A stretch of DNA of 64,000 bases from Candidatus Woesearchaeota archaeon (GTDB taxonomy: Archaea > Nanobdellota > Nanobdellia > Pacearchaeales > GW2011-AR1): contig CAYITD010000001.1 in the NCBI GenBank assembly GCA_964366325.1, forward strand, positions 41,922 to 105,921, written 5' to 3'. A program made the position numbers and the translations under genes. Numbering within the stretch: position 1 is the first letter of the stretch; every line of letters starts with the position of its first letter. Positions 4,873 through 30,335 of the stretch are shown here, piece by piece. The notes under the pieces are model-generated. The model searched no databases. It worked only from the letters and a program-made list of their open reading frames with translations, and was not told where the DNA came from.

Positions 4873-4896
4873 GAAAATCTTTTTTAAGTTTAAAAT

Positions 4897-4971
4897 GCAT
4901 CCGTAGCTCAGCCCGGATAGAGCATTGGGGTCCTAACCCAAGGGTCGAGGGTTCAAATCCTTCCGGATGCG
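4897..4971 (+). tRNA. tRNA-Arg (anticodon CCU)
   Basis: Hand-folded cloverleaf: acceptor GCATCCG/CGGATGC, D stem GCTC/GAGC, anticodon stem TTGGG/CCCAA with loop GTCCTAA, T arm GAGGG-TTCAAAT-CCTTC, discriminator G. No CCA is encoded. Confidence 0.85.
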
Positions 4972-4992
4972 TTAAAGCAAAGAGTAAAAACC

Positions 4993-5000
4993 TTTTTAAG
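4993..5000 (+). promoter_or_regulatory. TATA-like box upstream of tRNA-Gly
   Basis: TTTTTAAG is centred about 27 nt upstream of the tRNA 5' end at 5024. Confidence 0.45.
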
Positions 5001-5023
5001 CCCTTAAGTAGCTAATTTATCAA

Positions 5024-5095
5024 GCGCTGTTAGTTTAGTGGTTAGAATGGCCGGTTTCCACCCAGTCGACGGGGGTTCGATTCCCCCACAGCGCA
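5024..5095 (+). tRNA. tRNA-Gly (anticodon UCC)
   Basis: Hand-folded cloverleaf: acceptor GCGCTGT/ACAGCGC, T arm GGGGG-TTCGATT-CCCCC, anticodon loop TTTCCAC, discriminator A. The anticodon stem GCCGG/CCAGT has one C-A mismatch. No CCA is encoded. Confidence 0.85.
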
Positions 5096-18373: not shown

Positions 18374-21300
18374 ATGAAAAATAAAAAAAGAGGATTCCGT
18401 ACAAAGAACAACAAACTTGTTCTTGAAAGTTCACAAAGCAAAATAGTTTTTTCTTTTGTTGTTTTAGCGCTTGCTGTTTTGATTGCGACTTCTATGGCTC
18501 AAATTGTTAGTTATAATGTTGTAAGATTGAGTCCAAGTGATGGAGGCTCGGTTGTTTTGCAGGAAATAAAAGTTCCTTCTAAAACAAGATTGTATAATTA
18601 TAGAGAGCTTACCTCTGTTGGTGTTGAAAGCAAAGAACTAATAAATAAAAAAGAATGGTCTGATTTTAAGAGGATATATGGAGATAAATGGAGTGTGAAG
18701 TGGAATTTAGAAACCAAAACTCCAACAAGTATTATTGGAAGTAATATACAAACATCTGTTTTTGGAGTTCAATCTGTTAATGTAGAGAACATAGACATTT
18801 TAGCTAAAAGTTTTATGAGCTCAAATAAAGAATTATTAAAGATAGAAACTTCCAATTTAAAAGTTATTAAGAAACAAGATAATGATAAATTAAAAATAAT
18901 TTCTTATCAACAAAATTACAATAATATTCCAGTATTTGGAAGTTACGTTTTGTTAGCTACAAAAAGTGATAAAATTGTTATGCTTAAGTCAAACTACTTT
19001 TCAGATATATACATATCTACCGTGCCGAAAATAACAGAAAAAGAAGCAAATAGAGTGTCTAAAAATTTCTTTAATGTTAAAGACAATTTTGACCTTTTTC
19101 CTAAATTGATAGTATATCCTTTAAAAAATGGAAAATATGTTCTAGCTTACAAAATTGACTTTCCAGTTATTAAAAACAACATCCAAGACAATGAACAACC
19201 AATTATTAAACCAAGTATTTTCATTAATGCAGAAAATGGGGGAATAATAGATTATTATGATAACATCAAATATGATGATTTATCTGGAACTGTGAATGGG
19301 CCAATTTATCCCGTATTTAGTGATGATCGTCAAATTGGTGTCCCTTTTAGAGATGAATGGGTTTATGGAAATGGTATACAAACAAAAACAACAAAACTAG
19401 GTTATTATCAAATTAGCAACTTAAGCGGAAATGTAAATCTTAATGCACATTTAGAAGGGCCTTGGGCTAACGTATCTAATGTGCAACAAAGTAGAGCAAA
19501 TTATTCAATGAATTTAATTGCTCCTACAACACACAACTGGAATTGGATAGACTTTGATAATTCTTACAAACAAGAAGAATCTAATGCATTTTATCACACA
19601 AATATTATTCATGATTATATCACTAAGACTTCTTTGAATGTTAGTGAAATGAATTTGCAGATGAAAGTGAATGTTAATTTACCTTATAGTTGCAATGCTT
19701 ATTATGATGGAAGTTCTATTAACTTTTTTATGGCTAATCCAGAGCGAAATTGCGAGAGCTCTGCATTAGATGCTGGAGTAATTTATCATGAGTATGGCCA
19801 TGGAATTAATAAAGGTTTAGTTGAGGTAAATTGGCCAAACGTGTGTGAAACTGGAAACATGAATGAAGGTTTAGCAGATTATTGGTCATGCACTATCAAG
19901 GATGACTCTTGCGAGTCCTATTTCACTGGTTCATGTGCTAGACCATGTGATAATAACAACAGATATCCTCAAGATTATACTTGTGAAGAACATTCTGGTG
20001 CACAGATAGTTTCAGGTGCTTTTTGGGATATAAGAAAGATTTATGGGGCAGAATATACTGATAAACTTGCTGTTGATGCTTTAAGATTACAACCAATGTC
20101 CTTCTCTGAACTTTTAGAGAACACCTTAATAGCCGATGACGACAATGAAGATTTAAGCGATGGAACCTCCAATATTGAGAATATTTGTTCTGCGTTCTGG
20201 GATAATCATGGAATATATAATCCGTTTTGTATAAATCGTACTTTGACAGGAATTGCTGTCATAATCTCGCCAAAAATAGAGTCAAATAATTTATTTAAAG
20301 GTAATTCTATTTTAGAGATAAAGGGAATTGTAAGCGGAACATCTTCTCAACCATTACGAAATTATGTTTTAGAGTTTAGTTCAAATAACGAAAACTGGTT
20401 TAGTGATGGAATTTCACTTACTGAAGGGGAAATAATTGATGGAGTATTGGGTTATTGGAATATGAGCAATTTAGATAATGGAATTTATACACTTAGATTA
20501 ACAGTTAATTATGGGGCAAATCAACATTCTACTTTTTTTGTCAGGGTAATAAAAGACAGTAATATTAGAAAAGGATGGCCTGTAAAAGAACCTTACGGAC
20601 ATTGGCTTGGTTCTTCACCAACGTTATCAGATTTAGATCATGATAACAATAACGATGTTGTTTTGGGGGGCTGGTCTAAAATTTTCATTCTAAATTATTC
20701 AGGAGGAGAGCTCTTTTCTGCAGGTTTGTTTACTATCACATCAAAACCATCTATTGGAGATCTAGAGGGTGATGGCAATTTTGAAGTTGTTTTTAATGAT
20801 AATTACGGAATTATTACTGTATTCAACAATATAGGACAGGTTTTATGGCAGAAAAATGCGGGCGATTCATCTAATATGTATGGTTCTACCACATTAACAG
20901 ACTTAAATGGAGATGGAAAATTAGAGATAGTTGTTGGTAATGATAATGGAAGATTAAGGGTTTTTGATTTTCAAGGAAACATTTTATGGTTAAATCAAAC
21001 AATTGGCAGCATAAGTGGTGTTTCAGTAGGGGATCTGGATAATAATGGAAATTTGGAAATTGTGGTACCTTCATATAATCATGAAACAGGCAAGTTTAGG
21101 ATTTATATTTATGATAAAGATGGAAATTACTTAATAAACCCCATAGATGTACAATTAATAAATCCGTATGATGATTATGGCAGTTCCAGTTGGCAATATG
21201 GGTCATCTCCTATCCTATCCGATATAAACAATGATGGATATAAAGAAATTATTATCGGTTTACCTGATGGTTCATTAGGAGTTTGGAATCATAATGGTAG

Positions 21301-22204
21301 TTTATATTGGAAACAAGAATTAAAACCAGGATATAGAACGAGATCTCCTGCAATAGGGGATTTAGATAATAATGGAAATTTGGAAATTGTGGCTTCATCT
21401 GGCAATGGCGTCTATGCACTATATTATAATAGCTCTTTAGTAAGCGGATTCCCTGTTTATCCAAATGAATATGATGATCATATATTGCTCTCTTCTCCTA
21501 TTTTAGCAGATATCGATAACGATAGTTATCTTGAAGTCTTGATTTCTTCAAATGATAAAGTTAAGATTTATAGACTTGATGGAAGCGAAATTTATATTAA
21601 TTCATTTTTTACAGGAAATAATTATGGAACAGTTGGAGTTGGGGATCTGGATAATAATGGAAAGACAGATATTGTTGTAGCTTCTTTTGGCTCTTATATT
21701 TATGCGTGGGAGTTAAACACTGCGTTAGGAACAACAAATAAGGGTTGGCCTGAGTGGCATTATGATAACAGAAATACTGGGTGCTACAAATGTCCAATCT
21801 GCGGAAACTCCATCATCGAAACAGGAGAACAATGCGACGATGGAAACCTAAACAATCCTGACGGCTGTTCATCAACATGCCAGATTCAAACTTATTTTGA
21901 ATGCTCTGGGCAACCAAGTATATGCAAAGCAATTTGTACAGACAGCGATGGAGGGGACAAACCATACAGAAAAGGTATAGTGAACATAGAAGCTTATAGA
22001 ATAAATGTTCAAGACGCATGCTTCAATTCGACAATGGTAAGAGAATATATCTGTGACTGGGATGCTGTAAGAAATGAAACTATCGCTAATTCAAAAGTGC
22101 AATCTTGCAACACCTGGTGCACAGACGGATATTGCACCTCTTCCCCATTAGGTGGACCAATTCCTACGAAAGTGCCTAGAAATCCAGCCAGCAATATTCA
22201 ATAG
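18374..22204 (+). CDS. large secreted multidomain protein: propeptide-like region, M36 (fungalysin)-like zinc metalloprotease, FG-GAP/VCBS beta-propeller repeats, Cys-rich C-terminal modules
   Basis: It has an N-terminal TM/signal segment (FSFVVLALAVLIATSMA) and an HExxH site VIYHEYGHGI, with NMNEGLADYW downstream. Repeated GDLDNNGNLEIVV, DLNGDGKLEIVVG and DINNDGYKEIIIG blades follow. The C-terminus carries CGNSIIETGEQCDDGNLNNPDGCSSTC (a myxococcal-type Cys-rich repeat) and a CTDSDGG module. Confidence 0.7.
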   Translation: MKNKKRGFRTKNNKLVLESSQSKIVFSFVVLALAVLIATSMAQIVSYNVVRLSPSDGGSVVLQEIKVPSKTRLYNYRELTSVGVESKELINKKEWSDFKRIYGDKWSVKWNLETKTPTSIIGSNIQTSVFGVQSVNVENIDILAKSFMSSNKELLKIETSNLKVIKKQDNDKLKIISYQQNYNNIPVFGSYVLLATKSDKIVMLKSNYFSDIYISTVPKITEKEANRVSKNFFNVKDNFDLFPKLIVYPLKNGKYVLAYKIDFPVIKNNIQDNEQPIIKPSIFINAENGGIIDYYDNIKYDDLSGTVNGPIYPVFSDDRQIGVPFRDEWVYGNGIQTKTTKLGYYQISNLSGNVNLNAHLEGPWANVSNVQQSRANYSMNLIAPTTHNWNWIDFDNSYKQEESNAFYHTNIIHDYITKTSLNVSEMNLQMKVNVNLPYSCNAYYDGSSINFFMANPERNCESSALDAGVIYHEYGHGINKGLVEVNWPNVCETGNMNEGLADYWSCTIKDDSCESYFTGSCARPCDNNNRYPQDYTCEEHSGAQIVSGAFWDIRKIYGAEYTDKLAVDALRLQPMSFSELLENTLIADDDNEDLSDGTSNIENICSAFWDNHGIYNPFCINRTLTGIAVIISPKIESNNLFKGNSILEIKGIVSGTSSQPLRNYVLEFSSNNENWFSDGISLTEGEIIDGVLGYWNMSNLDNGIYTLRLTVNYGANQHSTFFVRVIKDSNIRKGWPVKEPYGHWLGSSPTLSDLDHDNNNDVVLGGWSKIFILNYSGGELFSAGLFTITSKPSIGDLEGDGNFEVVFNDNYGIITVFNNIGQVLWQKNAGDSSNMYGSTTLTDLNGDGKLEIVVGNDNGRLRVFDFQGNILWLNQTIGSISGVSVGDLDNNGNLEIVVPSYNHETGKFRIYIYDKDGNYLINPIDVQLINPYDDYGSSSWQYGSSPILSDINNDGYKEIIIGLPDGSLGVWNHNGSLYWKQELKPGYRTRSPAIGDLDNNGNLEIVASSGNGVYALYYNSSLVSGFPVYPNEYDDHILLSSPILADIDNDSYLEVLISSNDKVKIYRLDGSEIYINSFFTGNNYGTVGVGDLDNNGKTDIVVASFGSYIYAWELNTALGTTNKGWPEWHYDNRNTGCYKCPICGNSIIETGEQCDDGNLNNPDGCSSTCQIQTYFECSGQPSICKAICTDSDGGDKPYRKGIVNIEAYRINVQDACFNSTMVREYICDWDAVRNETIANSKVQSCNTWCTDGYCTSSPLGGPIPTKVPRNPASNIQ

Positions 22205-22347: not shown

Positions 22348-22354
22348 TTTAAAA
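22348..22354 (+). promoter_or_regulatory. TATA-like box for the ABC operon
   Basis: TTTAAAA is centred 26 nt upstream of the ATG at 22377. Confidence 0.4.
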
Positions 22355-22376: not shown

Positions 22377-23093
22377 ATGACAACCTTGATAGAACTAGAC
22401 AATGTAGAAAAGCATTACCAAATGGGAGAAAACTTAGTGAAAGCCGTAGACGGAATTTCAATAAAAATAGAAAAAGGAGATTTTGTAGCGATAATGGGTC
22501 CTTCTGGATCAGGAAAATCAACATCTATGAATTTAGTGGGTTCTTTAGACTTACCAACACATGGAGAAATATATCTAGACAACAAAGATATTGCTCATTT
22601 AGACGAATCACAATTAGCTCAAATAAGAGGAAAGAAAATAGGGTTTATCTTCCAAGGCTTTAATTTAATACCTAACTTAACAGCAAAAGAAAATGTTATG
22701 CTTCCAATGCTCTTTCAAGGTCTAGATTCCGAGCATAGAGAACAGAAAGCGGAGGAATTGTTAGCTCTTGTTGATTTAAGTGAGCGAATAGACCATTACC
22801 CTGGACAATTATCAGGCGGACAACAGCAAAGAGTAGCTATCGCTCGTTCGTTAGCTAACGATCCAGAAGTTATTCTAGCTGATGAACCAACAGGTAATTT
22901 AGACACAAAAACAGGGGAGAAAGTATTAGGTTTTCTTGAAGATTTAAACAAGAAAGGAAAAACAATAATCATGGTAACTCATGATCCTAACTTAGCTCAA
23001 ACACATGCAAAAACAATTTATTGGATCAAGGATGGTAAAGTGGAAAAGCTTACAAAAAGAGTGAAAGGCGTTTGGAAAGAGATAAAAGGTTAA
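22377..23093 (+). CDS. ABC transporter ATP-binding protein (MacB/LolD/FtsE-type)
   Basis: It has Walker [10 protein letters not shown], the signature [13 protein letters not shown], Walker [13 protein letters not shown] and the H-loop VTHD. Confidence 0.9.
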
Positions 23094-23156
23094 TTGTAAC
23101 CCTTGTTAAGTTACCACAAAACAAACATTTTTAAATCAATAAAATCTAAGATAAAC

Positions 23157-24041
23157 ATGGAAAAAATAGGAATAAAAATATCTACAGCATTGGTTTTTTT
23201 AGTCTTAGCTATCTCTCTTTCCTCAGCAGTTACTTTAAATTCAGTAGACGTTGATCCCATGTCACCTGGAAAAGAAGGGTCAATAAGGATGGAAATAGAA
23301 AATATTCTAAATGAAGATGTTGAAGACGTTTCAGTTTCTCTTAAATTTATAAATACACCATTTATACCTATTGGAAGTTCAGACGATTCAGTAGATGAAA
23401 TAAATGAAGATGACGAAGAAAGTTTTGTATTCAGAATAAAAGCTTCAAATAATATTTTACCTGGAGATTATGAAATTCCTTACACAATCACATATAGGCT
23501 AAAAAACTCTGATAATCAACTTACAAAATCAGGTTCGATCGGGATCAAAGTAATTTCAAATCCAGAGCTATCATTCACAATTAATGTAGAAAATCCTGTT
23601 GAAAACCAAAAGGGAAAAATATCTATAAAAATAGTAAACAAAGGTTTTTACGAAGCAAGGTTCGTTTCAATAAAGGTTCTTCCTACATCATTTACTTTAC
23701 TTTCAGATCCTGAAATATACATAGGGAGCGTCGACTCTGACGATTTTGAAACAGCAAACTTTGACGTCATTTTCAAGAAATCAGGCAACTCTAATGTTGA
23801 GGCAACCGTTGATTACATAGATTTTGAGAATAAAAAACAGACAAAAAGCTTAGATCTTCCAATATCAGTTTATTCACAGGAAAAAGCTCTTGAGCTAGGA
23901 ATAATCCAAGCAAATCGTGTTCCACTTTACTTAGGTTTGTTGGTAGGCTTAATTGTTTTAATCTTCGTAATAAGATACATAAGAAGACGCATGCGTTTGA
24001 GGAAAAGCATGCAGGCAAGAAATACCAACGGAGGTAAATAA
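23157..24041 (+). CDS. exported beta-rich protein with a C-terminal TM anchor (CARDB/COG1361 S-layer-domain-like)
   Basis: It has a signal peptide MEKIGIKISTALVFLVLAISLSSA and two repeated beta-sandwich-like segments (PGDYEIPYTITY). The C-terminal anchor is LYLGLLVGLIVLIFVIRYIRRR. The track start at 23103 is a TTG; ATG at 23157 is preferred. Confidence 0.6.
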   Translation: MEKIGIKISTALVFLVLAISLSSAVTLNSVDVDPMSPGKEGSIRMEIENILNEDVEDVSVSLKFINTPFIPIGSSDDSVDEINEDDEESFVFRIKASNNILPGDYEIPYTITYRLKNSDNQLTKSGSIGIKVISNPELSFTINVENPVENQKGKISIKIVNKGFYEARFVSIKVLPTSFTLLSDPEIYIGSVDSDDFETANFDVIFKKSGNSNVEATVDYIDFENKKQTKSLDLPISVYSQEKALELGIIQANRVPLYLGLLVGLIVLIFVIRYIRRRMRLRKSMQARNTNGGK

Positions 24042-24042
24042 A

Positions 24043-24363
24043 ATGGAAGATGAAAGTCTTTTAGTTATAAGCGTTAAAAGAGTAGTAAAAGAAGAGAGCA
24101 GACTTGAACAAATATATGCTGGTCCAGGCACTATTGGAGACTGGGAGGACTTCGTTCCTGCAGGATATAAAAGAGAAGCAGAGTATAGAATTCTAAATAT
24201 TTTCAGATCTGTCACACCCAATAGACTAGATGTTGAAGACTATGCTGCTAAAAGGGTAGCACATGGAAAATATAATGTTCATTCTCATCAACGTATTAAC
24301 CTATTTGGTTCAGACATAGATCATTTAGTTAGATTTTTACGACCTAAAGGAGAGAGAAGATAA
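24043..24363 (+). CDS. small soluble protein, paralog A1 (unknown family)
   Basis: This 106-aa protein starts after a 1-nt spacer from the upstream stop. It shares Y.G.G...W.D..P, Y.I..F, RV, LV.FL and a C-terminal RR with the next ORF. Confidence 0.6.
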   Translation: MEDESLLVISVKRVVKEESRLEQIYAGPGTIGDWEDFVPAGYKREAEYRILNIFRSVTPNRLDVEDYAAKRVAHGKYNVHSHQRINLFGSDIDHLVRFLRPKGERR

Positions 24364-24364
24364 A

Positions 24365-24691
24365 ATGGAAAAAGAAACAGGCACAGAGCCAAATGGGGTA
24401 AGAAAAGAATTTTTCATAACTGATCCAAATGGAGAAGTTGTTTATGAAGGAAATGGCAGTTTTTTTAACTGGAGAGATTTAATTCCAAACGAACATAGAG
24501 GTAGCGAAAGCTATGTTATAACTAGTTTTCATTCAGACGAATCTGACAGTATATTTTTAGAAAATTGGCGAGCTCATAGAGTAAGTGATAATTTTTATGC
24601 TACAGACATTCAACAAACTTCAACTTTAAGTGCACCTATTCTTAGTAGACTAGTCTCATTCTTAGCAAGAGTAAATTCAGATAGGAGGTAA
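24365..24691 (+). CDS. small soluble protein, paralog A2 (unknown family)
   Basis: This 108-aa protein starts after a 1-nt spacer and is collinearly similar to A1. Confidence 0.6.
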   Translation: MEKETGTEPNGVRKEFFITDPNGEVVYEGNGSFFNWRDLIPNEHRGSESYVITSFHSDESDSIFLENWRAHRVSDNFYATDIQQTSTLSAPILSRLVSFLARVNSDRR

Positions 24692-24697
24692 ATCTCC

Positions 24698-25915
24698 ATG
24701 ATAAAAGATTACATAGTTCTAGCTCTAAGAAACCTAAGAAAAAGGGGAATAAGGTCCTGGCTTACAATGTTAGGCGTTTTCTTAGGAATAGCCGCAGTTG
24801 TCTCTCTAATTTCCCTAGGTCAAGGCCTTAGAGAAGCAATAACAGGACAATTCTCAAATCTTGCTCCTGATTTATTAACTTTCACTTCAGCAGAAACTGG
24901 CTTTGGTCCTCCAGGAAGCACAGCAGTCCATAGATTAACAGATCACGATCTAGATTTAGTAAAATCAATTCAGGGAGTAAAAAGAGCAATCCCTAGGATA
25001 ATTAGGGTTGTAAAAGTGGAATTTAACAATGTAGCTAATTTCGACTATATTGGAAGTCTTCCAGAAAATCAGGAAGATGTAGACTTTATTTATCACACTT
25101 TTAATGTGGAAGCATCGGAAGGCCGATTGTTAGACGCAAAAGAATACGGTAAAGTAATCTTAGGAGACGATTTCAAAAGAGAAAATCAATTTGAAAAAAA
25201 GATAAAAATCGGAGACAGGATAAACATTCAGGGAAAAGATTTTGAAGTCATAGGCTTCATGAAAAGAGCAAGTACATTTACAATTAATTCCGTAGTTTTA
25301 ATGTCAGAAAAAGATCTCAAAGATATATTAAACATTAAAGATGAAATAGATTTAATAGCTATCCAAGTTCAAGATAAAGACATAGTTGAACAGGTTGCAA
25401 AAGATATAGGAAGAAAGTTTAGAAAAGACAGAAATGAAGAAGAAGGAGAAGAAGATTTTTCAATCCAAACTCCTGTCCAATCGCTTGAATCAATAAACAC
25501 TATCTTAAATGTAATAAATATTGTAGTTGTAGGTATTGCAATTATCTCTCTATTTATAGGTGGAATAGGCATAGCAAATACAATGTTCACTTCTGTTTTA
25601 GAGAGAAGAAAAGAAATAGGGGTGATGAAAGCAATCGGAGCGAAAAACAAAGACATTCTTTCTATTTTCGTTACAGAATCCGCTCTTTTAGGCCTAGTAG
25701 GAGGAATTATAGGAGCCATAATTGGTCTTCTCCTCGCCCTTGGAGTTTCTTCGATAGCAAACGCAGCATTCAATGATGAAATCCTAAAAGTTTCAATTTC
25801 TTGGCCTCTTTTATTCGCATCAATTTCCTTCTCTTTAGTAATCGGAATTCTTTCAGGAATTATTCCAGCCTATCAGGCTTCTCGCTTAAATCCCGTGGAG
25901 GCGCTTAGAAAATGA
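24698..25915 (+). CDS. MacB/FtsX-type ABC permease with an extracytoplasmic MacB_PCD-like domain
   Basis: It has N-terminal LRKRGIRSWLTMLGVFLGIAAV, a large loop, and an FtsX module with GGIGIANTMFTSVLERRKEIGVMKAIGAKNKDI. The C-terminus is NPVEALRK. Confidence 0.85.
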   Translation: MIKDYIVLALRNLRKRGIRSWLTMLGVFLGIAAVVSLISLGQGLREAITGQFSNLAPDLLTFTSAETGFGPPGSTAVHRLTDHDLDLVKSIQGVKRAIPRIIRVVKVEFNNVANFDYIGSLPENQEDVDFIYHTFNVEASEGRLLDAKEYGKVILGDDFKRENQFEKKIKIGDRINIQGKDFEVIGFMKRASTFTINSVVLMSEKDLKDILNIKDEIDLIAIQVQDKDIVEQVAKDIGRKFRKDRNEEEGEEDFSIQTPVQSLESINTILNVINIVVVGIAIISLFIGGIGIANTMFTSVLERRKEIGVMKAIGAKNKDILSIFVTESALLGLVGGIIGAIIGLLLALGVSSIANAAFNDEILKVSISWPLLFASISFSLVIGILSGIIPAYQASRLNPVEALRK

Positions 25916-26349
25916 GCCTAGTATCCGAAAAAAACAGAAATCTAAGAAGCGTAGCTACAGCATTAAAATATTCTGGAATAGAAACGCCGGAAGAAAGAAG
26001 ACAAGTTATTAAGAGAATTAATTTTTACGCTAATCCAAGTCTGTCAGTTGCACAATCTTTCGTAATTCTTTCAGTATCTGAGCTTATTATTACATACTTA
26101 GAAAGAATAAATTCACAACCTTATTCTCATGCATTAGCCTGTTGTTTATCTTTTATATCTGCACTCCATGGACTTAACAATTTTAATAAATCTTTCTATC
26201 TAGTAAAAAATGCAAAAGAAATTGTCTCAGAGCAAAGAAGAAGACTAAGTAAAGATTATGTTCAAGATAACAGATCAGATGGAGAAACAGACTTATCAAC
26301 TTATTTAGACAAAGCGAAATCTTTTGGCTTAGGAGGAATTTTAAGATGA
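25912..26349 (+). CDS. small 2-TM-like protein, paralog B1 (unknown family)
   Basis: This 145-aa protein has an ATGA overlap with the permease stop. It has an EERRQVIKR motif, two hydrophobic segments and a C-terminal GLGG. Confidence 0.55.
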   Translation: MSLVSEKNRNLRSVATALKYSGIETPEERRQVIKRINFYANPSLSVAQSFVILSVSELIITYLERINSQPYSHALACCLSFISALHGLNNFNKSFYLVKNAKEIVSEQRRRLSKDYVQDNRSDGETDLSTYLDKAKSFGLGGILR

Positions 26350-26756
26350 AAGTTTCAAAAAGAATTACAGATTTGATAGGCACTATTAGAAATTTAAGAG
26401 ATTTAAATTTATATGACAGAGAGGAAAGAAGAGAGATAGTAAATAGGTTTTATCGAGCACAAAGGATTAGCGGAAACTCAACTAAAAATTCTCGCCTTGC
26501 AGAAATATCAAATAATTTAGTTTGCCTGTTGCAAAGTTATGTAATAATCTCTTTTGATTTACCCATTGCCTATTTTTGTTTACCTGTTGCTTCATATTGG
26601 TTTAGTAATAAAATGAGGATAAAGGGGTTAAACGATGATTTTATTTCAAAGGTCAATACAACCAGTTATCTTCAAAGACAAATAATGTCTGGCGAATCCA
26701 TAAGCGAACGAAGTAATAATTATGGTCTAGATAAACTACTAGGAGGCTCACAATGA
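26346..26756 (+). CDS. small 2-TM-like protein, paralog B2 (unknown family)
   Basis: This 136-aa protein has 4-nt overlaps on both sides. It has an EERREIVNR motif, two hydrophobic segments and a C-terminal LLGG. Confidence 0.55.
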   Translation: MKVSKRITDLIGTIRNLRDLNLYDREERREIVNRFYRAQRISGNSTKNSRLAEISNNLVCLLQSYVIISFDLPIAYFCLPVASYWFSNKMRIKGLNDDFISKVNTTSYLQRQIMSGESISERSNNYGLDKLLGGSQ

Positions 26757-27961
26757 TCACCGACTTCATAAAAATTTCCATAAAAAACATAAAGAAAAGA
26801 AAGCTTAGGTCAGCACTAACTCTTCTAGGAATATTAATATCAATAGCAACCGTTTTTACTCTAATAAGCATCTCTCTAGGTTTACAAAAGGCAGTTGAAG
26901 AGCAATTCAAACTTCTAGGTTCAGACAAATTCTTTATTCAACCAAGAGGCCAACTAGCAGGTCCTGGAACAGGAGGAGCAGTTTCACTAACAGAAAAAGA
27001 TGTAGACTTAATCAAAAAAGTTACAGGAGTTAAAGAACTATCTGCCTGGTCGGCAACAAGCGCTAAAATCGAACATGATAAAGAAATAAGATTCGTTGCA
27101 GTAGTTGGAATAGATCTAGATACCTCTGATTTATTTATTGAAACTGGAGCATACAAGGCAGAACAAGGTAGAGTGATAAAAAAAGGCGATACAAAAGATA
27201 TAATGGTCGGTTCACAATATAGCGAAAGTTTCTTTAAAAAACCAATCAAGATCGGAGACACTTTGAAAATAAACGATGAAGAATTTAAAGTTCGTGGGAT
27301 TTTGAAAACAATAGGAAATCCACAAGATGATCGTCTTATTTATATGCCTGAACCAGAATTCAGAGTTTTATTCAATGTCCCAGATAGGATAGATACAATA
27401 GTTGTCCAAGTTGTCGAGCAAGATAATTTGAAAGAAGTAGCTGATAGAGTTGACAGAAAGTTAATGAATTTCAGGAAGGTAGATGAAAAAACAAAAGACT
27501 TTACTATTCTAACTCCAGAAGAACTTCTTGAAAGTTTCGGAACTATTTTATCAGTAATAACTTCGTTTCTTTTAGGTGTAGCTGCAATATCTTTGCTAGT
27601 AGGCGGAATAGGGATAGCCAATACAGTCTACACTTCTGTTTTAGAGAGAACAAGAGAAATAGGAGTGATGAAAGCAATCGGGGCAAAAAACAAAGATGTT
27701 CTTTCAATATTTTTAATAGAGTCCGGAATTTTAGGTCTAATTGGAGGAATAATCGGAATATTATTAGGGTTGACAGTAAGCAAAACAATTGAATATATAG
27801 CAGTCAATCAATTAGGTACCACCCTGCTTCAAGCATCTTTTCCAGCCTACTTAATAATAGGCTGTCTCGTATTCTCAGTAGTCGCAGGAACGGTCTCAGG
27901 AATTTGGCCGGCTTGGAAAGGTTCAAAAATAAGGCCAGTTGAAGCTCTAAGATATGATTAG
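26753..27961 (+). CDS. second MacB/FtsX-type ABC permease
   Basis: It has the same architecture as 24698-25915, with GGIGIANTVYTSVLERTREIGVMKAIGAKNKDV and a C-terminal RPVEALRYD. Confidence 0.85.
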   Translation: MITDFIKISIKNIKKRKLRSALTLLGILISIATVFTLISISLGLQKAVEEQFKLLGSDKFFIQPRGQLAGPGTGGAVSLTEKDVDLIKKVTGVKELSAWSATSAKIEHDKEIRFVAVVGIDLDTSDLFIETGAYKAEQGRVIKKGDTKDIMVGSQYSESFFKKPIKIGDTLKINDEEFKVRGILKTIGNPQDDRLIYMPEPEFRVLFNVPDRIDTIVVQVVEQDNLKEVADRVDRKLMNFRKVDEKTKDFTILTPEELLESFGTILSVITSFLLGVAAISLLVGGIGIANTVYTSVLERTREIGVMKAIGAKNKDVLSIFLIESGILGLIGGIIGILLGLTVSKTIEYIAVNQLGTTLLQASFPAYLIIGCLVFSVVAGTVSGIWPAWKGSKIRPVEALRYD

Positions 27962-27989: not shown

Positions 27990-29138
27990 ATGATTCATCA
28001 ATTAAAAAACATGAGAATACTCGAGTTAACTAATTTTTCAGCAGGGGGTTGCGGAGTATTTGCAAGAGTAAAAGAAGAGTCTTTAAGACTATCCAACTTA
28101 GGTCACACAGTTAAGATATTTTCTTCAAATTTAGAGAAAGGCACTTGGAAAATAGTTGCAGAAAATGAAAAGATAGGGCGCGTGTCTATAACTAGGTTTA
28201 AGGCAAAAAGGTTAGGGGGAGAAAGTTATATTCGCTGGAATTTTGAAGAAGAAGCTCTAAGATTTAAACCAGATATAATAATAGCCCATGGATACCGACA
28301 CATACACACCCTCAAAGCAATTAAATTAAAAAATAAATTAGACTGCAAAGTAATTTTGGTGACTCATGCACCATTTGGTAGAAATAAAACTAGAAGCCAA
28401 TTAGAAAATACCGTTGTCTATCTATTTGATAATTTAATAGGAAGAAAAACGATAAATAAATTTGATAGAGTAATAGCAATAACAAAGTGGGAAATGCCAT
28501 TTCTAAAAGAAATTGGATTGAAAGAAGACAAGACTTTGTACATTCCAAATGGCATAAGAGAAAACTTTTTCAAAGATAAAAAAATAAGCAAAGAGCAAAA
28601 TAAGCTCATCTATACAGGAAGAATAGTTTCAATAAAAGATTTAGAAGTGGTTATAGAAGCTTTTGAATATCTAAAAGATAAAAAAATAATCTTTGAGTTG
28701 TTAGGCCCTGCAGATGTAAAATATCTTTTAAGCTTGATAGAGCTAGTAAAAGCCGAAGGCTTAGAGAATAAAGTTTTTTTTAATAACAGAGGATACAACA
28801 TAAAAGAGCAAATTAAGTTTTTAGATTCAGGAAAGATTTTTGTTTTACCTTCAATAAGTGAGGGGATGCCCCAAGTGTTAATAGAAGCAATGGCTAGGGG
28901 AAAGATAGTTATCTCAAGTGATAATCCTGGGTCGAAAGATTTAATTCAAAATGGAAAAAATGGTTACTTATTTAAAATAGGGGATGCGAGAGATTTAGCT
29001 GATAAAATAAACTTGGTTTCCTCAAAGAATAATACGCTTATGAAAGAAAATGCAACAAATTCCGTAAAAATCTACAGCTGGGATAAAGTAATAGAAAGTA
29101 TAGAGAAAATGCTTAATCAACTTATGAAAAAACAGTAA
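27990..29138 (+). CDS. glycosyltransferase family 4 (GT-B, GT1/4 type)
   Basis: It has SEGMPQVLIEAMARGKIVISSDNPGSKDLIQNGKNGYLF. ATG at 28011 (MRILELTNFSAGG) is the more likely start, because the TATA-like box AATTTTATATA at 27978-27988 lies 27 nt upstream of it. Confidence 0.8.
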   Translation: MIHQLKNMRILELTNFSAGGCGVFARVKEESLRLSNLGHTVKIFSSNLEKGTWKIVAENEKIGRVSITRFKAKRLGGESYIRWNFEEEALRFKPDIIIAHGYRHIHTLKAIKLKNKLDCKVILVTHAPFGRNKTRSQLENTVVYLFDNLIGRKTINKFDRVIAITKWEMPFLKEIGLKEDKTLYIPNGIRENFFKDKKISKEQNKLIYTGRIVSIKDLEVVIEAFEYLKDKKIIFELLGPADVKYLLSLIELVKAEGLENKVFFNNRGYNIKEQIKFLDSGKIFVLPSISEGMPQVLIEAMARGKIVISSDNPGSKDLIQNGKNGYLFKIGDARDLADKINLVSSKNNTLMKENATNSVKIYSWDKVIESIEKMLNQLMKKQ

Positions 29139-29192
29139 ATTTTTTGCTCAACTCAACAAAAGATTTATAATTTGACAACTTAGTCTACTAAA

Positions 29193-30335
29193 GTGGATCT
29201 ATATTACGAATTAAGAAGATATAAGGCTAAATTAATAAAAGTATTAAGAACTTTTACCTATTATTTTGAGTATCTGTTTTGGTTGATTTTTTCATTCTCA
29301 AAGTTTAAAAAATATCCAAAAATAGTAAAAAGTATCCTTGTAATTAATCATGGAGCCCTAGGAGATATTTTTTGCTCATTAAAAACAATTTACAATTTAT
29401 CTCTAAATAACCCTAAAATAAATTTATCATATCTAGTAGAGGAGCCTTTTCATCAAAACTTTAGGTTTTTAGAAAAATTAATGAAAATAAAAATAATAAC
29501 AACTAAAGAGCTTAGTGAAAAAAATTTCGATCTAACTATAATCTTTAACAGTTTTCAAAATTTAAGCAAACACCGTGATAATTTAGGTTTTTGTATAGGA
29601 AACGAGTATTCTGGAGCTAAAGGGGCGTTTTATTCTATAAGAGACTTGTTCATTAATAGAAAACAAAAACCATTGTATAGGCATAAATTAAAACAAGAAA
29701 TAGAAATAGTAAAACTTGCCGGGTTAAAAATTGGAAACACTTTGAAGGGTTTCAATAAAATTAATAATGAAAAAGTTGATAGTTTATTGAAGAAAAATAA
29801 AATAAAAGATTTTGCTATTATTCATCCTTCTGGAAGAAATTTTGCTGATATTTTAAAACAAGGCAAAATTCCTAACCTTGCATGGCCCTTTGAACGGTTC
29901 TCAGAAATAGCCGATTATTTAGCTGAAAATTATGGTTACGATGTAATTATCAGTGGGAGCAAGGAAGAAAAATTTATTGGAGACATACTGATAAACAAAT
30001 GCAAAAATAAGAAAAAAGTAATAAACTTTTCTGGAAAATTAAATATTGAAGAGCTTGCAAGTTTAGTGTCCAGAGCAAAATTAGTTTTAAGTGTGGATAC
30101 TGCAACTGCGCACATCTCTGAGTTTTTTGATGTTAAAACTGTGACTTTGTTTGGGCCGACATTTTTAGAAGAAGTCAGACCTTATGGGAGTAAAGATAAA
30201 TTTATTTCAATATGTCATCCTGAAAAATGCATTCAGGATAGAAGAAAAGGATATTGTCATGGAGACAGAAACATATGCATGGAGTCTATTAGTGTAGCCG
30301 AAGTCAAAAAAGCTATTAATAACTTAAATATTTGA
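29193..30335 (+). CDS. glycosyltransferase family 9 (heptosyltransferase-like)
   Basis: It has ILVINHGALGDIFCSL, a WPFERF region, GKLNIEELASLVSRAKLVLSVDTATAHIS and TLFGPT. The start codon is GTG. Confidence 0.7.
   Translation: MDLYYELRRYKAKLIKVLRTFTYYFEYLFWLIFSFSKFKKYPKIVKSILVINHGALGDIFCSLKTIYNLSLNNPKINLSYLVEEPFHQNFRFLEKLMKIKIITTKELSEKNFDLTIIFNSFQNLSKHRDNLGFCIGNEYSGAKGAFYSIRDLFINRKQKPLYRHKLKQEIEIVKLAGLKIGNTLKGFNKINNEKVDSLLKKNKIKDFAIIHPSGRNFADILKQGKIPNLAWPFERFSEIADYLAENYGYDVIISGSKEEKFIGDILINKCKNKKKVINFSGKLNIEELASLVSRAKLVLSVDTATAHISEFFDVKTVTLFGPTFLEEVRPYGSKDKFISICHPEKCIQDRRKGYCHGDRNICMESISVAEVKKAINNLNI

Follow-up and report, generated by a model that had tools for sequence, protein, structure and literature searches.

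The window analysed here, a 64,000-nucleotide (nt) stretch of archaeal DNA, carries on its forward strand, at positions 22377-27961, an operon whose conserved core of four genes encodes an archaeal type VII (MacB/FtsX-like) ATP-binding cassette (ABC) system that includes a CARDB surface partner. Set among the four core genes are four small ones, A1, A2, B1, and B2. A is a soluble alpha/beta protein of ~100 residues that constitutes a new family; B, as read from its sequence, would be a basic protein of ~140 residues forming a two-segment membrane hairpin, and likewise the founder of a new family. Given that A and B are dispensable, evolve fast, and vary in copy number, the balance tips modestly toward regarding them as translationally coupled accessory or hitchhiker cassettes rather than as stoichiometric subunits of the transporter.

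Eight co-directional genes make up the operon in the open reading frame (ORF) listing, all on the plus strand: those for the ABC ATPase (22377..23093, 238 residues), the CARDB surface protein (23157..24041, 294 residues), A1 (24043..24363, 106 residues), its tandem paralog A2 (24365..24691, 108 residues), permease 1 (24698..25915, 405 residues), B1 (25912..26349, 145 residues), B2 (26346..26756, 136 residues), and permease 2 (26753..27961, 402 residues). An earlier reading of the window, made from the letters alone (the sequence-only reading), had given this gene order with the same coordinates, spacers, and ATGA overlaps, and the ORF listing and junction sequences agree with it exactly. The contig derives from Hainich groundwater (well H43, 0.1-µm fraction). 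The archaeal (DPANN) host that had been surmised fits the closest loci in species-representative genomes, which belong to metagenome-assembled genomes of Woesearchaeota, Pacearchaeota, and Nanoarchaeota.

The core proteins are readily classified. The ATPase is of the MacB/LolD/FtsE-like nucleotide-binding type (Pfam ABC_tran, E 8e-35), with Walker A, signature, and Walker B motifs; its best NCBIfam models are MacB, DarD, LolD, and FtsE, each match falling below the equivalog cut-off. Both permeases are type VII ABC permeases with an N-terminal transmembrane helix, a MacB_PCD domain (residues 20-238 in permease 1 and 20-235 in permease 2), and a C-terminal FtsX domain with three transmembrane helices (residues 280-399 and 276-394), with Pfam E values from 1e-22 to 1e-27 (2e-27 and 1e-22 for the two domains of permease 1). 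They are distinct proteins that share 39% identity (BLASTP E 1e-78), and their nearest NCBIfam models, MacB, LolCE, and FtsX, are matched far under the equivalog cut-offs. The second gene, described earlier as encoding a beta-rich protein with a signal peptide and a C-terminal anchor, indeed encodes such a protein, which Pfam identifies by a CARDB domain (E 3e-5, residues 158-238) and a second immunoglobulin (Ig)-like match (NPCBM_assoc, E 0.03, residues 54-131); from its N- to its C-terminus it consists of a signal peptide, the two Ig-like domains, a transmembrane anchor, and a basic tail.

Comparison with 80 related DPANN loci, gathered with permease 1 as query and covering 40-80% permease 1 identity, separates this core from the small genes. 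Two full permeases are present in 74 of the 80 loci, and permease 1 precedes permease 2 in 67 of these 74, which bears out the assignment of a MacB-type operon with two different permeases. A CARDB homolog lies upstream of permease 1 in 66 of the 80. At the permease 1/permease 2 junction, 31 of the 74 pairs overlap by 4 nt and 29 lie no more than 60 nt apart, so that gene-sized room exists in only 14; likewise, the gap between the CARDB gene and permease 1 exceeds 150 nt in only 16 of 66 loci. The small genes are thus absent from most related operons, and the spacing counts indicate that the ancestral, common unit is ATPase-CARDB-permease 1-permease 2. In a neighbour-joining tree, A and B are confined to one permease 1 subclade, in which they are patchily distributed among loci that have neither, and they are missing even from close operons at 60-63% permease 1 identity. 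The sequence-only reading had proposed to survey DPANN genomes for such genes beside the permeases: they are present in the one subclade, and most loci lack them. Its idea that tight coupling implies a fixed stoichiometry finds no support in a family of operons in which 60 of 74 permease pairs overlap or are at most 60 nt apart.

Among known transporters, LolCDE, the heterodimeric type VII ABC system of Gram-negative bacteria (PMC8277102), resembles the core in having one ATPase gene and two paralogous MacB_PCD/FtsX permeases. By analogy with it, and given the permease order kept in the related loci, a LolCDE-like heterodimer of the two permeases is a reasonable inference, as had been suggested, and a C-E-D2-like heterodimer that works by mechanotransmission is plausible here (PMC8277102). 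Mechanotransmission itself would be the mode expected from family membership, by comparison with LolCDE and MacB (PMC8277102). Together, the ATPase (presumably a dimer), the permease heterodimer, and the membrane-anchored CARDB protein would form a core complex in which, as the analogy with MacB, LolCDE, and FtsEX suggests, ATP hydrolysis moves the extracellular domains of the permeases. However, the two permeases score 95 and 88 bits with the NCBIfam lolCE model against a cut-off of 362, the archaeal host has neither an outer membrane nor LolA or LolB, and the CARDB surface protein and the inserted small genes have no Lol counterpart. MacAB-TolC shares the permease fold class, MacB_PCD plus FtsX, and the type of ATPase. 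MacB is a fused homodimer that requires MacA and TolC, whereas here the ATPase and permeases are encoded separately, the permeases are two different paralogs, no outer-membrane channel is present, and the second gene encodes the CARDB Ig-like protein. No membrane-fusion (HlyD/MacA) adaptor domain was found by Pfam in any of the eight operon proteins.

None of the four small proteins has a match in Pfam, NCBIfam, PHROGs, or PADLOC, or among PDB sequences, in keeping with the earlier statement that they belong to unrecognised families. A1 and A2 are paralogs, as had been claimed (BLASTP E 1e-9, 29% identity). A first single-sequence search with A2 retrieved only A2 itself, and a word-indexed search yielded six A members. 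An exhaustive HMMER search of 1.84 billion representatives (E up to 1e-3) returned 15 proteins: A1, A2, and P0006, which belong to the query alignment, eleven further proteins of 91-112 residues, and one spurious match, the 2438-residue repeat protein P0016, which was rejected as a low-complexity artefact. The family as now defined comprises proteins of ~90-130 residues that share the sequence pattern hhI..x..Y.G.G....W...L......Y and fold into five strands and two helices; when A1 and A2 are aligned with 15 other members, residues Y25, G29, W34, Y48, and Y77 are invariant. The AlphaFold2 model of A1 (pLDDT 77, pTM 0.64) shows the five strands and two helices.

Several candidate relatives of A were rejected. 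Foldseek found no match to the A model with E below 1e-3 in PDB or BFVD; the top match, the AFV1 ORF157 nuclease (E 0.065, TMq 0.53), is not significant, and the conserved residues of A are not catalytic, which also speaks against it. A profile match (E 9e-4) to the "DISC1 homolog" of PDB entry 9rux begins on the 3C-protease tag EVLFQGPGS, which mimics the Y.G.G motif of A, and then runs into a helical region although A is rich in beta structure. Finally, the A hidden Markov model (HMM) misses the CARDB proteins of ~420 residues found in other clades, which argues against A as a split-off third domain of these proteins.

The genomic address of A is well defined. In 10 distinct genomes (window/L086, L011, L019, L085, L087, L088, L091, L096, L097, and L099) one to three tandem copies of A separate the CARDB gene from permease 1. 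Homologs of the small genes keep their full length and the conserved motifs at 20-30% identity in many genomes. The nonsynonymous to synonymous substitution ratio (dN/dS) is 0.23 between A orthologs, whereas permease 1 has 0.08. The more similar two loci are in permease 1, the more similar they also tend to be in A (Spearman 0.81 for pairwise identities, the pairs being non-independent).

The B family is smaller and more loosely knit. The family as proposed comprises basic proteins of ~135-145 residues with an N-terminal L(R/K)..(I/L)....(E/D)RR and two hydrophobic segments; assigned to it are B1, B2, three proteins from L086, and single ones from L005, L009, and L088. All of their genes lie between permease 1 and permease 2, in five genomes (window, L086, L005, L009, and L088). 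B1 (pI 9.5) appears to be a small membrane protein, with an N-terminal helix that carries EERR, hydrophobic segments spanning roughly residues 40-66 and 70-91, and a tail of polar residues; B2, of similar architecture, groups firmly with its homologs in L009, L088, and L086 (L086-Bb). The proposed paralogy of B1 and B2 is marginal. On the one hand, the two share the EERR motif, the two hydrophobic segments, and a basic isoelectric point, and hhalign aligns them with P 5.8e-4 over the N-terminal 32 residues only; B1 is also joined to the family through the L005 protein (hhalign P 3e-4). On the other hand, BLASTP gives a nonsignificant E of 3.4, and an HMM built from B2-like sequences does not retrieve B1. 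The AlphaFold2 model of B2 is all-helical, with a pLDDT of 51 that is too low for a fold search; the Foldseek comparison that had been suggested was made with the A model and gave no significant match. A scan of metagenomes with B2 detected only the L086 contig.

L086 represents a strain from the neighbouring well H51 whose DNA is 96-99% identical to that of the window, and contigs over the region confirm two co-occurring strain variants. At L086:3423-4680, corresponding to window 25912-26756, this strain has three B genes, encoding proteins of 145, 138, and 136 residues. The mismatches between the two strains cluster in two tracts, window 22500-22800 in the ATPase gene and 25600-26250 over the 3' end of permease 1 and B1, and this clustering points to recombination. 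Between the strains, dN/dS is 0.04 for the ATPase and 0.04 for permease 1. Throughout the second tract dS is even, 0.38-0.49, whereas dN/dS rises from 0.04 at the permease 1 end to 0.15 in B1 codons 1-40 and 0.97 in codons 41-100, the hypervariable hydrophobic core, which is ~50% diverged at the protein level; codons 101-145 are near-identical, with one difference. Permease 2 and the downstream glycosyltransferase genes of L086 look truncated, possibly through assembly errors at low coverage. The sequence-only reading saw a design in which each permease gene is preceded by its own duplicated pair. That design is not supported: A occurs in 1-3 copies, B occurs in 1-3 with three in L086, A is present without B in L085 and L087, and B without A in L005 and L009.

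All genes from A1 to permease 2 are tightly joined to their upstream neighbours. Single-nucleotide spacers at 24042 and 24364 separate the CARDB gene from A1 and A1 from A2, a 6-nt spacer (24692-24697) separates A2 from permease 1, and ATGA overlaps at 25912, 26346, and 26753 join permease 1 to B1, B1 to B2, and B2 to permease 2. A GGAG(G) Shine-Dalgarno sequence lies 6-15 nt 5' of each of these genes, inside the end of the preceding one, and this arrangement supports the translational coupling that had been deduced from the junctions. It also accounts for much of the likeness between the protein ends. The last two codons of A2, AGG AGG (RR), are the Shine-Dalgarno sequence of permease 1, that of A2 encodes the G-E of the GERR with which A1 ends, and the GG close to the C-termini of B1 and B2 is encoded by the Shine-Dalgarno sequences of the genes that follow. 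Since these endings lie in or beside ribosome-binding sites, they are not evidence of homology, and the terminal RR must be struck from the similarities once listed for A1 and A2.

The ATPase gene stands somewhat apart from this block. The longest ORF of the CARDB gene begins with a TTG at 23103, and public gene calls give the 294-residue form from the ATG at 23157, which is most likely the start. From this ATG, the CARDB gene is separated from the ATPase gene by 63 nt, and thus the tightly coupled block runs from the CARDB gene to permease 2 without the ATPase gene. No Shine-Dalgarno sequence (GGAGG was looked for) lies upstream of the ATPase ATG or of the ATG at 23157. TATA-like elements can be read in the sequence at 22348..22354 (+) (TTTAAAA, ~23-29 nt 5' of the ATPase ATG) and at 23128..23136 (+) (TTTTTAAAT, ~21-29 nt 5' of the CARDB ATG). 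Their pattern suggests that an archaeal promoter may precede the ATPase gene and yield a leaderless mRNA, and that a second promoter, inside the operon, may drive a leaderless transcript running from CARDB to permease 2. These are two candidate leaderless starts deduced from TATA-like boxes and missing Shine-Dalgarno sequences. The arrangement would accord with leaderless first genes followed by Shine-Dalgarno-led internal genes. A sigma-70 promoter and terminator scan of the region gave no information for this archaeal sequence. In L005, L091, and L099, other genes part the ATPase gene from the CARDB gene. L005 is the closest species (80% permease 1 identity), and its ATPase-CARDB interval (L005:3253-4987) contains a homolog of the window glycosyltransferase at 27990-29138 and a second glycosyltransferase-like ORF (compare window 27990-30335), which indicates that the ATPase gene is not tied to the CARDB-permease block.

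A and B are not alone in occupying operon junctions. The extra ORFs at junctions of the related operons are heterogeneous between genomes, and several are recognisable toxin-antitoxin modules, co-oriented with the ABC operon and tightly spaced: a nucleotidyltransferase-HEPN (HEPN-MNT) module between the CARDB gene and permease 1 in L058 (4936-6004) and L067 (4882-6001), and MazEF (MazE-PemK; L091:2678-3255) and HicAB (HicB-HicA; L099:2191-2632) between the ATPase and CARDB genes. L018 has an inserted double helix-turn-helix protein, and L068 a 23S_rRNA_IVP four-helix protein. At least three further small-protein families at junctions have no detectable relation to A or B. One, of ~110-117 residues, carries HExxH variants (HERAH, HEAAH, or HEKSH, then ELGYSP/RGYSP), lies between the permeases at L013:3022-3372, L034:7226-7579, and L097:6498-6830, and has no Pfam match. 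A second, of 150-160 residues with the common motif EVLE.Y.P.QR.L.S, occupies the permease 1-permease 2 junction at L019:7209-7661, L021:4850-5332, and L026:6489-6962. A third, of 164 residues, occurs in L052 and L057, and there are many further orphan ORFs. The possibility that other ORFs in the positions of A and B are very diverged members of the A or B family was discarded, as hhalign shows no relation. Two-segment membrane proteins whose sequences show no detectable similarity to B are found at the permease 1-permease 2 junction in L096, L011, L091, and L019. The L091 operon is expanded to 13 genes; L091:3378-4148 and L091:5699-6493 encode paralogs of 256 and 264 residues, both ending ...RCSFGVSETAEGGAP..., which flank the CARDB and A genes.

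Three divergent A members lie outside the ABC operon, directly upstream of groEL (twice) and rpoB (once). The gene at L089:103-378 is in the order groES-A-groEL; that at L095:186-479 (L094/L095) follows two unknown small genes and precedes groEL; and that at L090:959-1249 lies in the order rpoH, three small genes, A, rpoB. All three open with the same 11-15 nt as the gene that follows them, so that the proteins begin MAKQL/MAKQL, MAKHL/MAKQL, and MTE/MTE (A/downstream). In a control set of 692 adjacent co-directional gene pairs, only two share at least 11 nt in this way, and both are permease 1/permease 2 paralogs; the match is therefore seen in 0 of ~690 unrelated adjacent pairs. As in the operon, the Shine-Dalgarno sequences of groEL and rpoB fall inside the end of A. 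A second inserted ORF in L090, u58 (MTEK...), likewise mimics the start of RpoB (MTEK...). Together, the groEL/rpoB contexts and the duplicated starts make it more likely that the A family is, at least in part, a mobile element.

Two other kinds of system offer models for the small genes. In YknWXYZ of Bacillus, protection from a peptide toxin requires a small membrane protein that acts with a MacB-like ATPase and permease (PMC8277102), which makes this system the best functional analogy for B as an accessory membrane protein beside a MacB-type unit. The analogy is incomplete, since B1 and B2 have two hydrophobic segments, no Pfam hit, and no detectable YknW similarity, and the window operon lacks an adaptor gene and has two different permeases. 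YknW itself has four transmembrane segments (Yip1-like), and the adaptor of the membrane-fusion type is YknX. Among archaea, the nearest parallel is provided by the SalXY-like ABC loci of Methanococcales, Pyrococcus, and Archaeoglobi, in which a predicted antimicrobial-peptide-type transporter is accompanied by a number of highly variable, lineage-specific membrane proteins, with arCOG01996/DUF95 proteins beside the transporter (Makarova et al. 2014, PMC4158269). In that analysis of "dark matter islands", the SalXY-associated proteins were read as membrane-associated defence or conflict systems (PMC4158269). The two cases share variable membrane proteins next to an ABC transporter; however, the variable genes of the window lie inside the operon, belong to other families, and include one soluble protein, A.

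The picture preferred here, of dispensable and translationally coupled cassettes, would run as follows. Small genes would have accumulated at the CARDB-permease 1 and permease 1-permease 2 junctions in one Woese-/Pacearchaeota-like subclade, and A and B would be expressed by riding on the operon through Shine-Dalgarno sequences inside the preceding gene ends. As a best guess by analogy, the B hairpins would sit in the membrane beside the permeases and serve as variable factors for specificity or immunity, much like YknW or NukH with their ABC pumps; A, again as a best guess, would act as a binding protein in the cytosol and belong to a mobile "operon-junction" class. The data fit optional modulators of the pump and hitchhiking conflict genes alike. 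Several points weigh against this picture. A is overwhelmingly a gene of a single junction in a single type of operon, and it diverges in step with permease 1, a pattern that also fits a genuine, if dispensable, transporter partner, and the recurring two-segment proteins at the permease 1-permease 2 junction hint at a function tied to the permeases. In addition, the immunity or specificity role rests on analogy, the B family was searched with the word-indexed tool whereas A was searched exhaustively, and none of the RNA runs searched contained the locus.

The original proposal, that A1/A2 and B1/B2 are dedicated subunits, a duplicated pair for each permease in fixed ratios within a surface or host-interaction machine, draws on the same features: the tight coupling of all the junctions, A adjoining permease 1 in 10 genomes and B lying between the permeases in five, the co-divergence of A with permease 1 under purifying selection, and the recurrence of small hairpin membrane proteins at the permease 1-permease 2 junction. 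Yet most orthologous operons lack A and B even at 60-63% permease 1 identity, the copy number ranges from 0 to 3 and differs between near-identical strains, and each family occurs without the other. A-like genes are also at home before groEL and rpoB, toxin-antitoxin modules occupy junctions of the same operon, and the giant adhesin gene upstream is no conserved neighbour. Dedicated subunits are accordingly considered unlikely.

The giant protease/adhesin gene directly precedes the operon, and this had been mentioned together with a possible surface or host-interaction machine. It encodes, at window 18374-22204, a secreted protein of 1276 residues with faint M36 peptidase matches, FG-GAP/beta-propeller repeats, and a Cys-rich DUF4215 tail, and it contains an internal 42-nt repeat (21024-21065 and 21351-21392). 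A homolog is not found within ~6 kb of the ABC genes in the locus of any other related species; the adjacency recurs only on L001, from the same genome, and the idea of a conserved linkage was dropped. Elsewhere in the window, adjoining genes for tRNA-Arg(CCT) and tRNA-Gly(TCC) at 4896-5095 are the sole Rfam/ARAGORN hits.

A second alternative holds that A and B are selfish or conflict genes unrelated to transport, such as addiction modules, membrane toxins with their immunity, or anti-virus factors, which lodge immediately upstream of conserved genes and are not easily lost, as the gene downstream has its ribosome-binding site in their 3' ends. Bona fide MazEF, HicAB, and HEPN-MNT modules at junctions of the same operon give this view substance, as do the 11-15-nt start copies of the A-like genes before groEL and rpoB, not matched in any of ~690 unrelated pairs, the Shine-Dalgarno sequence of the downstream gene within the end of A, and the tandem arrays, strain-level variation, and recombination tracts. 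The likeness to toxin-antitoxin modules is, however, one of position: A and B are unlike any toxin or antitoxin family, they are not obligately paired, and searches with Pfam, NCBIfam, PADLOC, and PHROGs revealed in neither of them a domain of a toxin, an antitoxin, or a defence system. What is conserved in A is a set of aromatic residues and glycines (Y, G, G, W, Y, and Y) rather than catalytic residues, and A is a long-standing resident beside permease 1. This second alternative is judged improbable.

Related to this is the proposal, more doubtful again, that A is a new kind of mobile "operon-junction" gene, which would insert directly before conserved, well-expressed genes (permease 1 of the ABC operon, groEL, and rpoB) and copy the first 11-15 nt of its target as its own start. 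The 3' end of A would then supply the ribosome-binding site of the target. Expression of A would thereby be secured and its deletion made difficult, which would amount to addiction by translational coupling. In this DPANN clade, A, the B hairpins, and classical toxin-antitoxin modules would all land preferentially in the ABC operon. The last alternative, that the small ORFs are spurious frames in long intergenic spacers, could appeal to the lack of database annotation and family hits and to the low-confidence B2 model, but it is effectively refuted by conservation and dN/dS (full-length homologs with motifs at 20-30% identity in many genomes; 0.23 for A and 0.15 for the B1 N-terminus), and with a Shine-Dalgarno sequence for each gene and a confident A model the four are real genes, as the sequence-only reading had taken them to be; since they also belong to unrecognised families, none of the outcomes that this reading had named as refuting it has come about.

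DPANN archaea have tiny genomes, depend on cell-surface interactions, and carry lineage-specific genes that are mostly of unknown function. For these organisms, the present work defines two new small-protein families with clear genomic addresses and a conserved ATPase-CARDB-permease-permease operon that many archaea share. Small genes, toxin-antitoxin modules and hypervariable membrane hairpins among them, accumulate at the junctions of this operon as at a hotspot and vary between co-occurring strains, and it is this insertion at operon junctions, rather than a new machine architecture, that is the most interesting aspect of the locus. If the B hairpins modulate the pump, they could help to find out what is recognised by MacB-like systems of archaea. 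Should A be a hitchhiker that targets junctions, genes would have a previously undescribed means of persisting in streamlined genomes.

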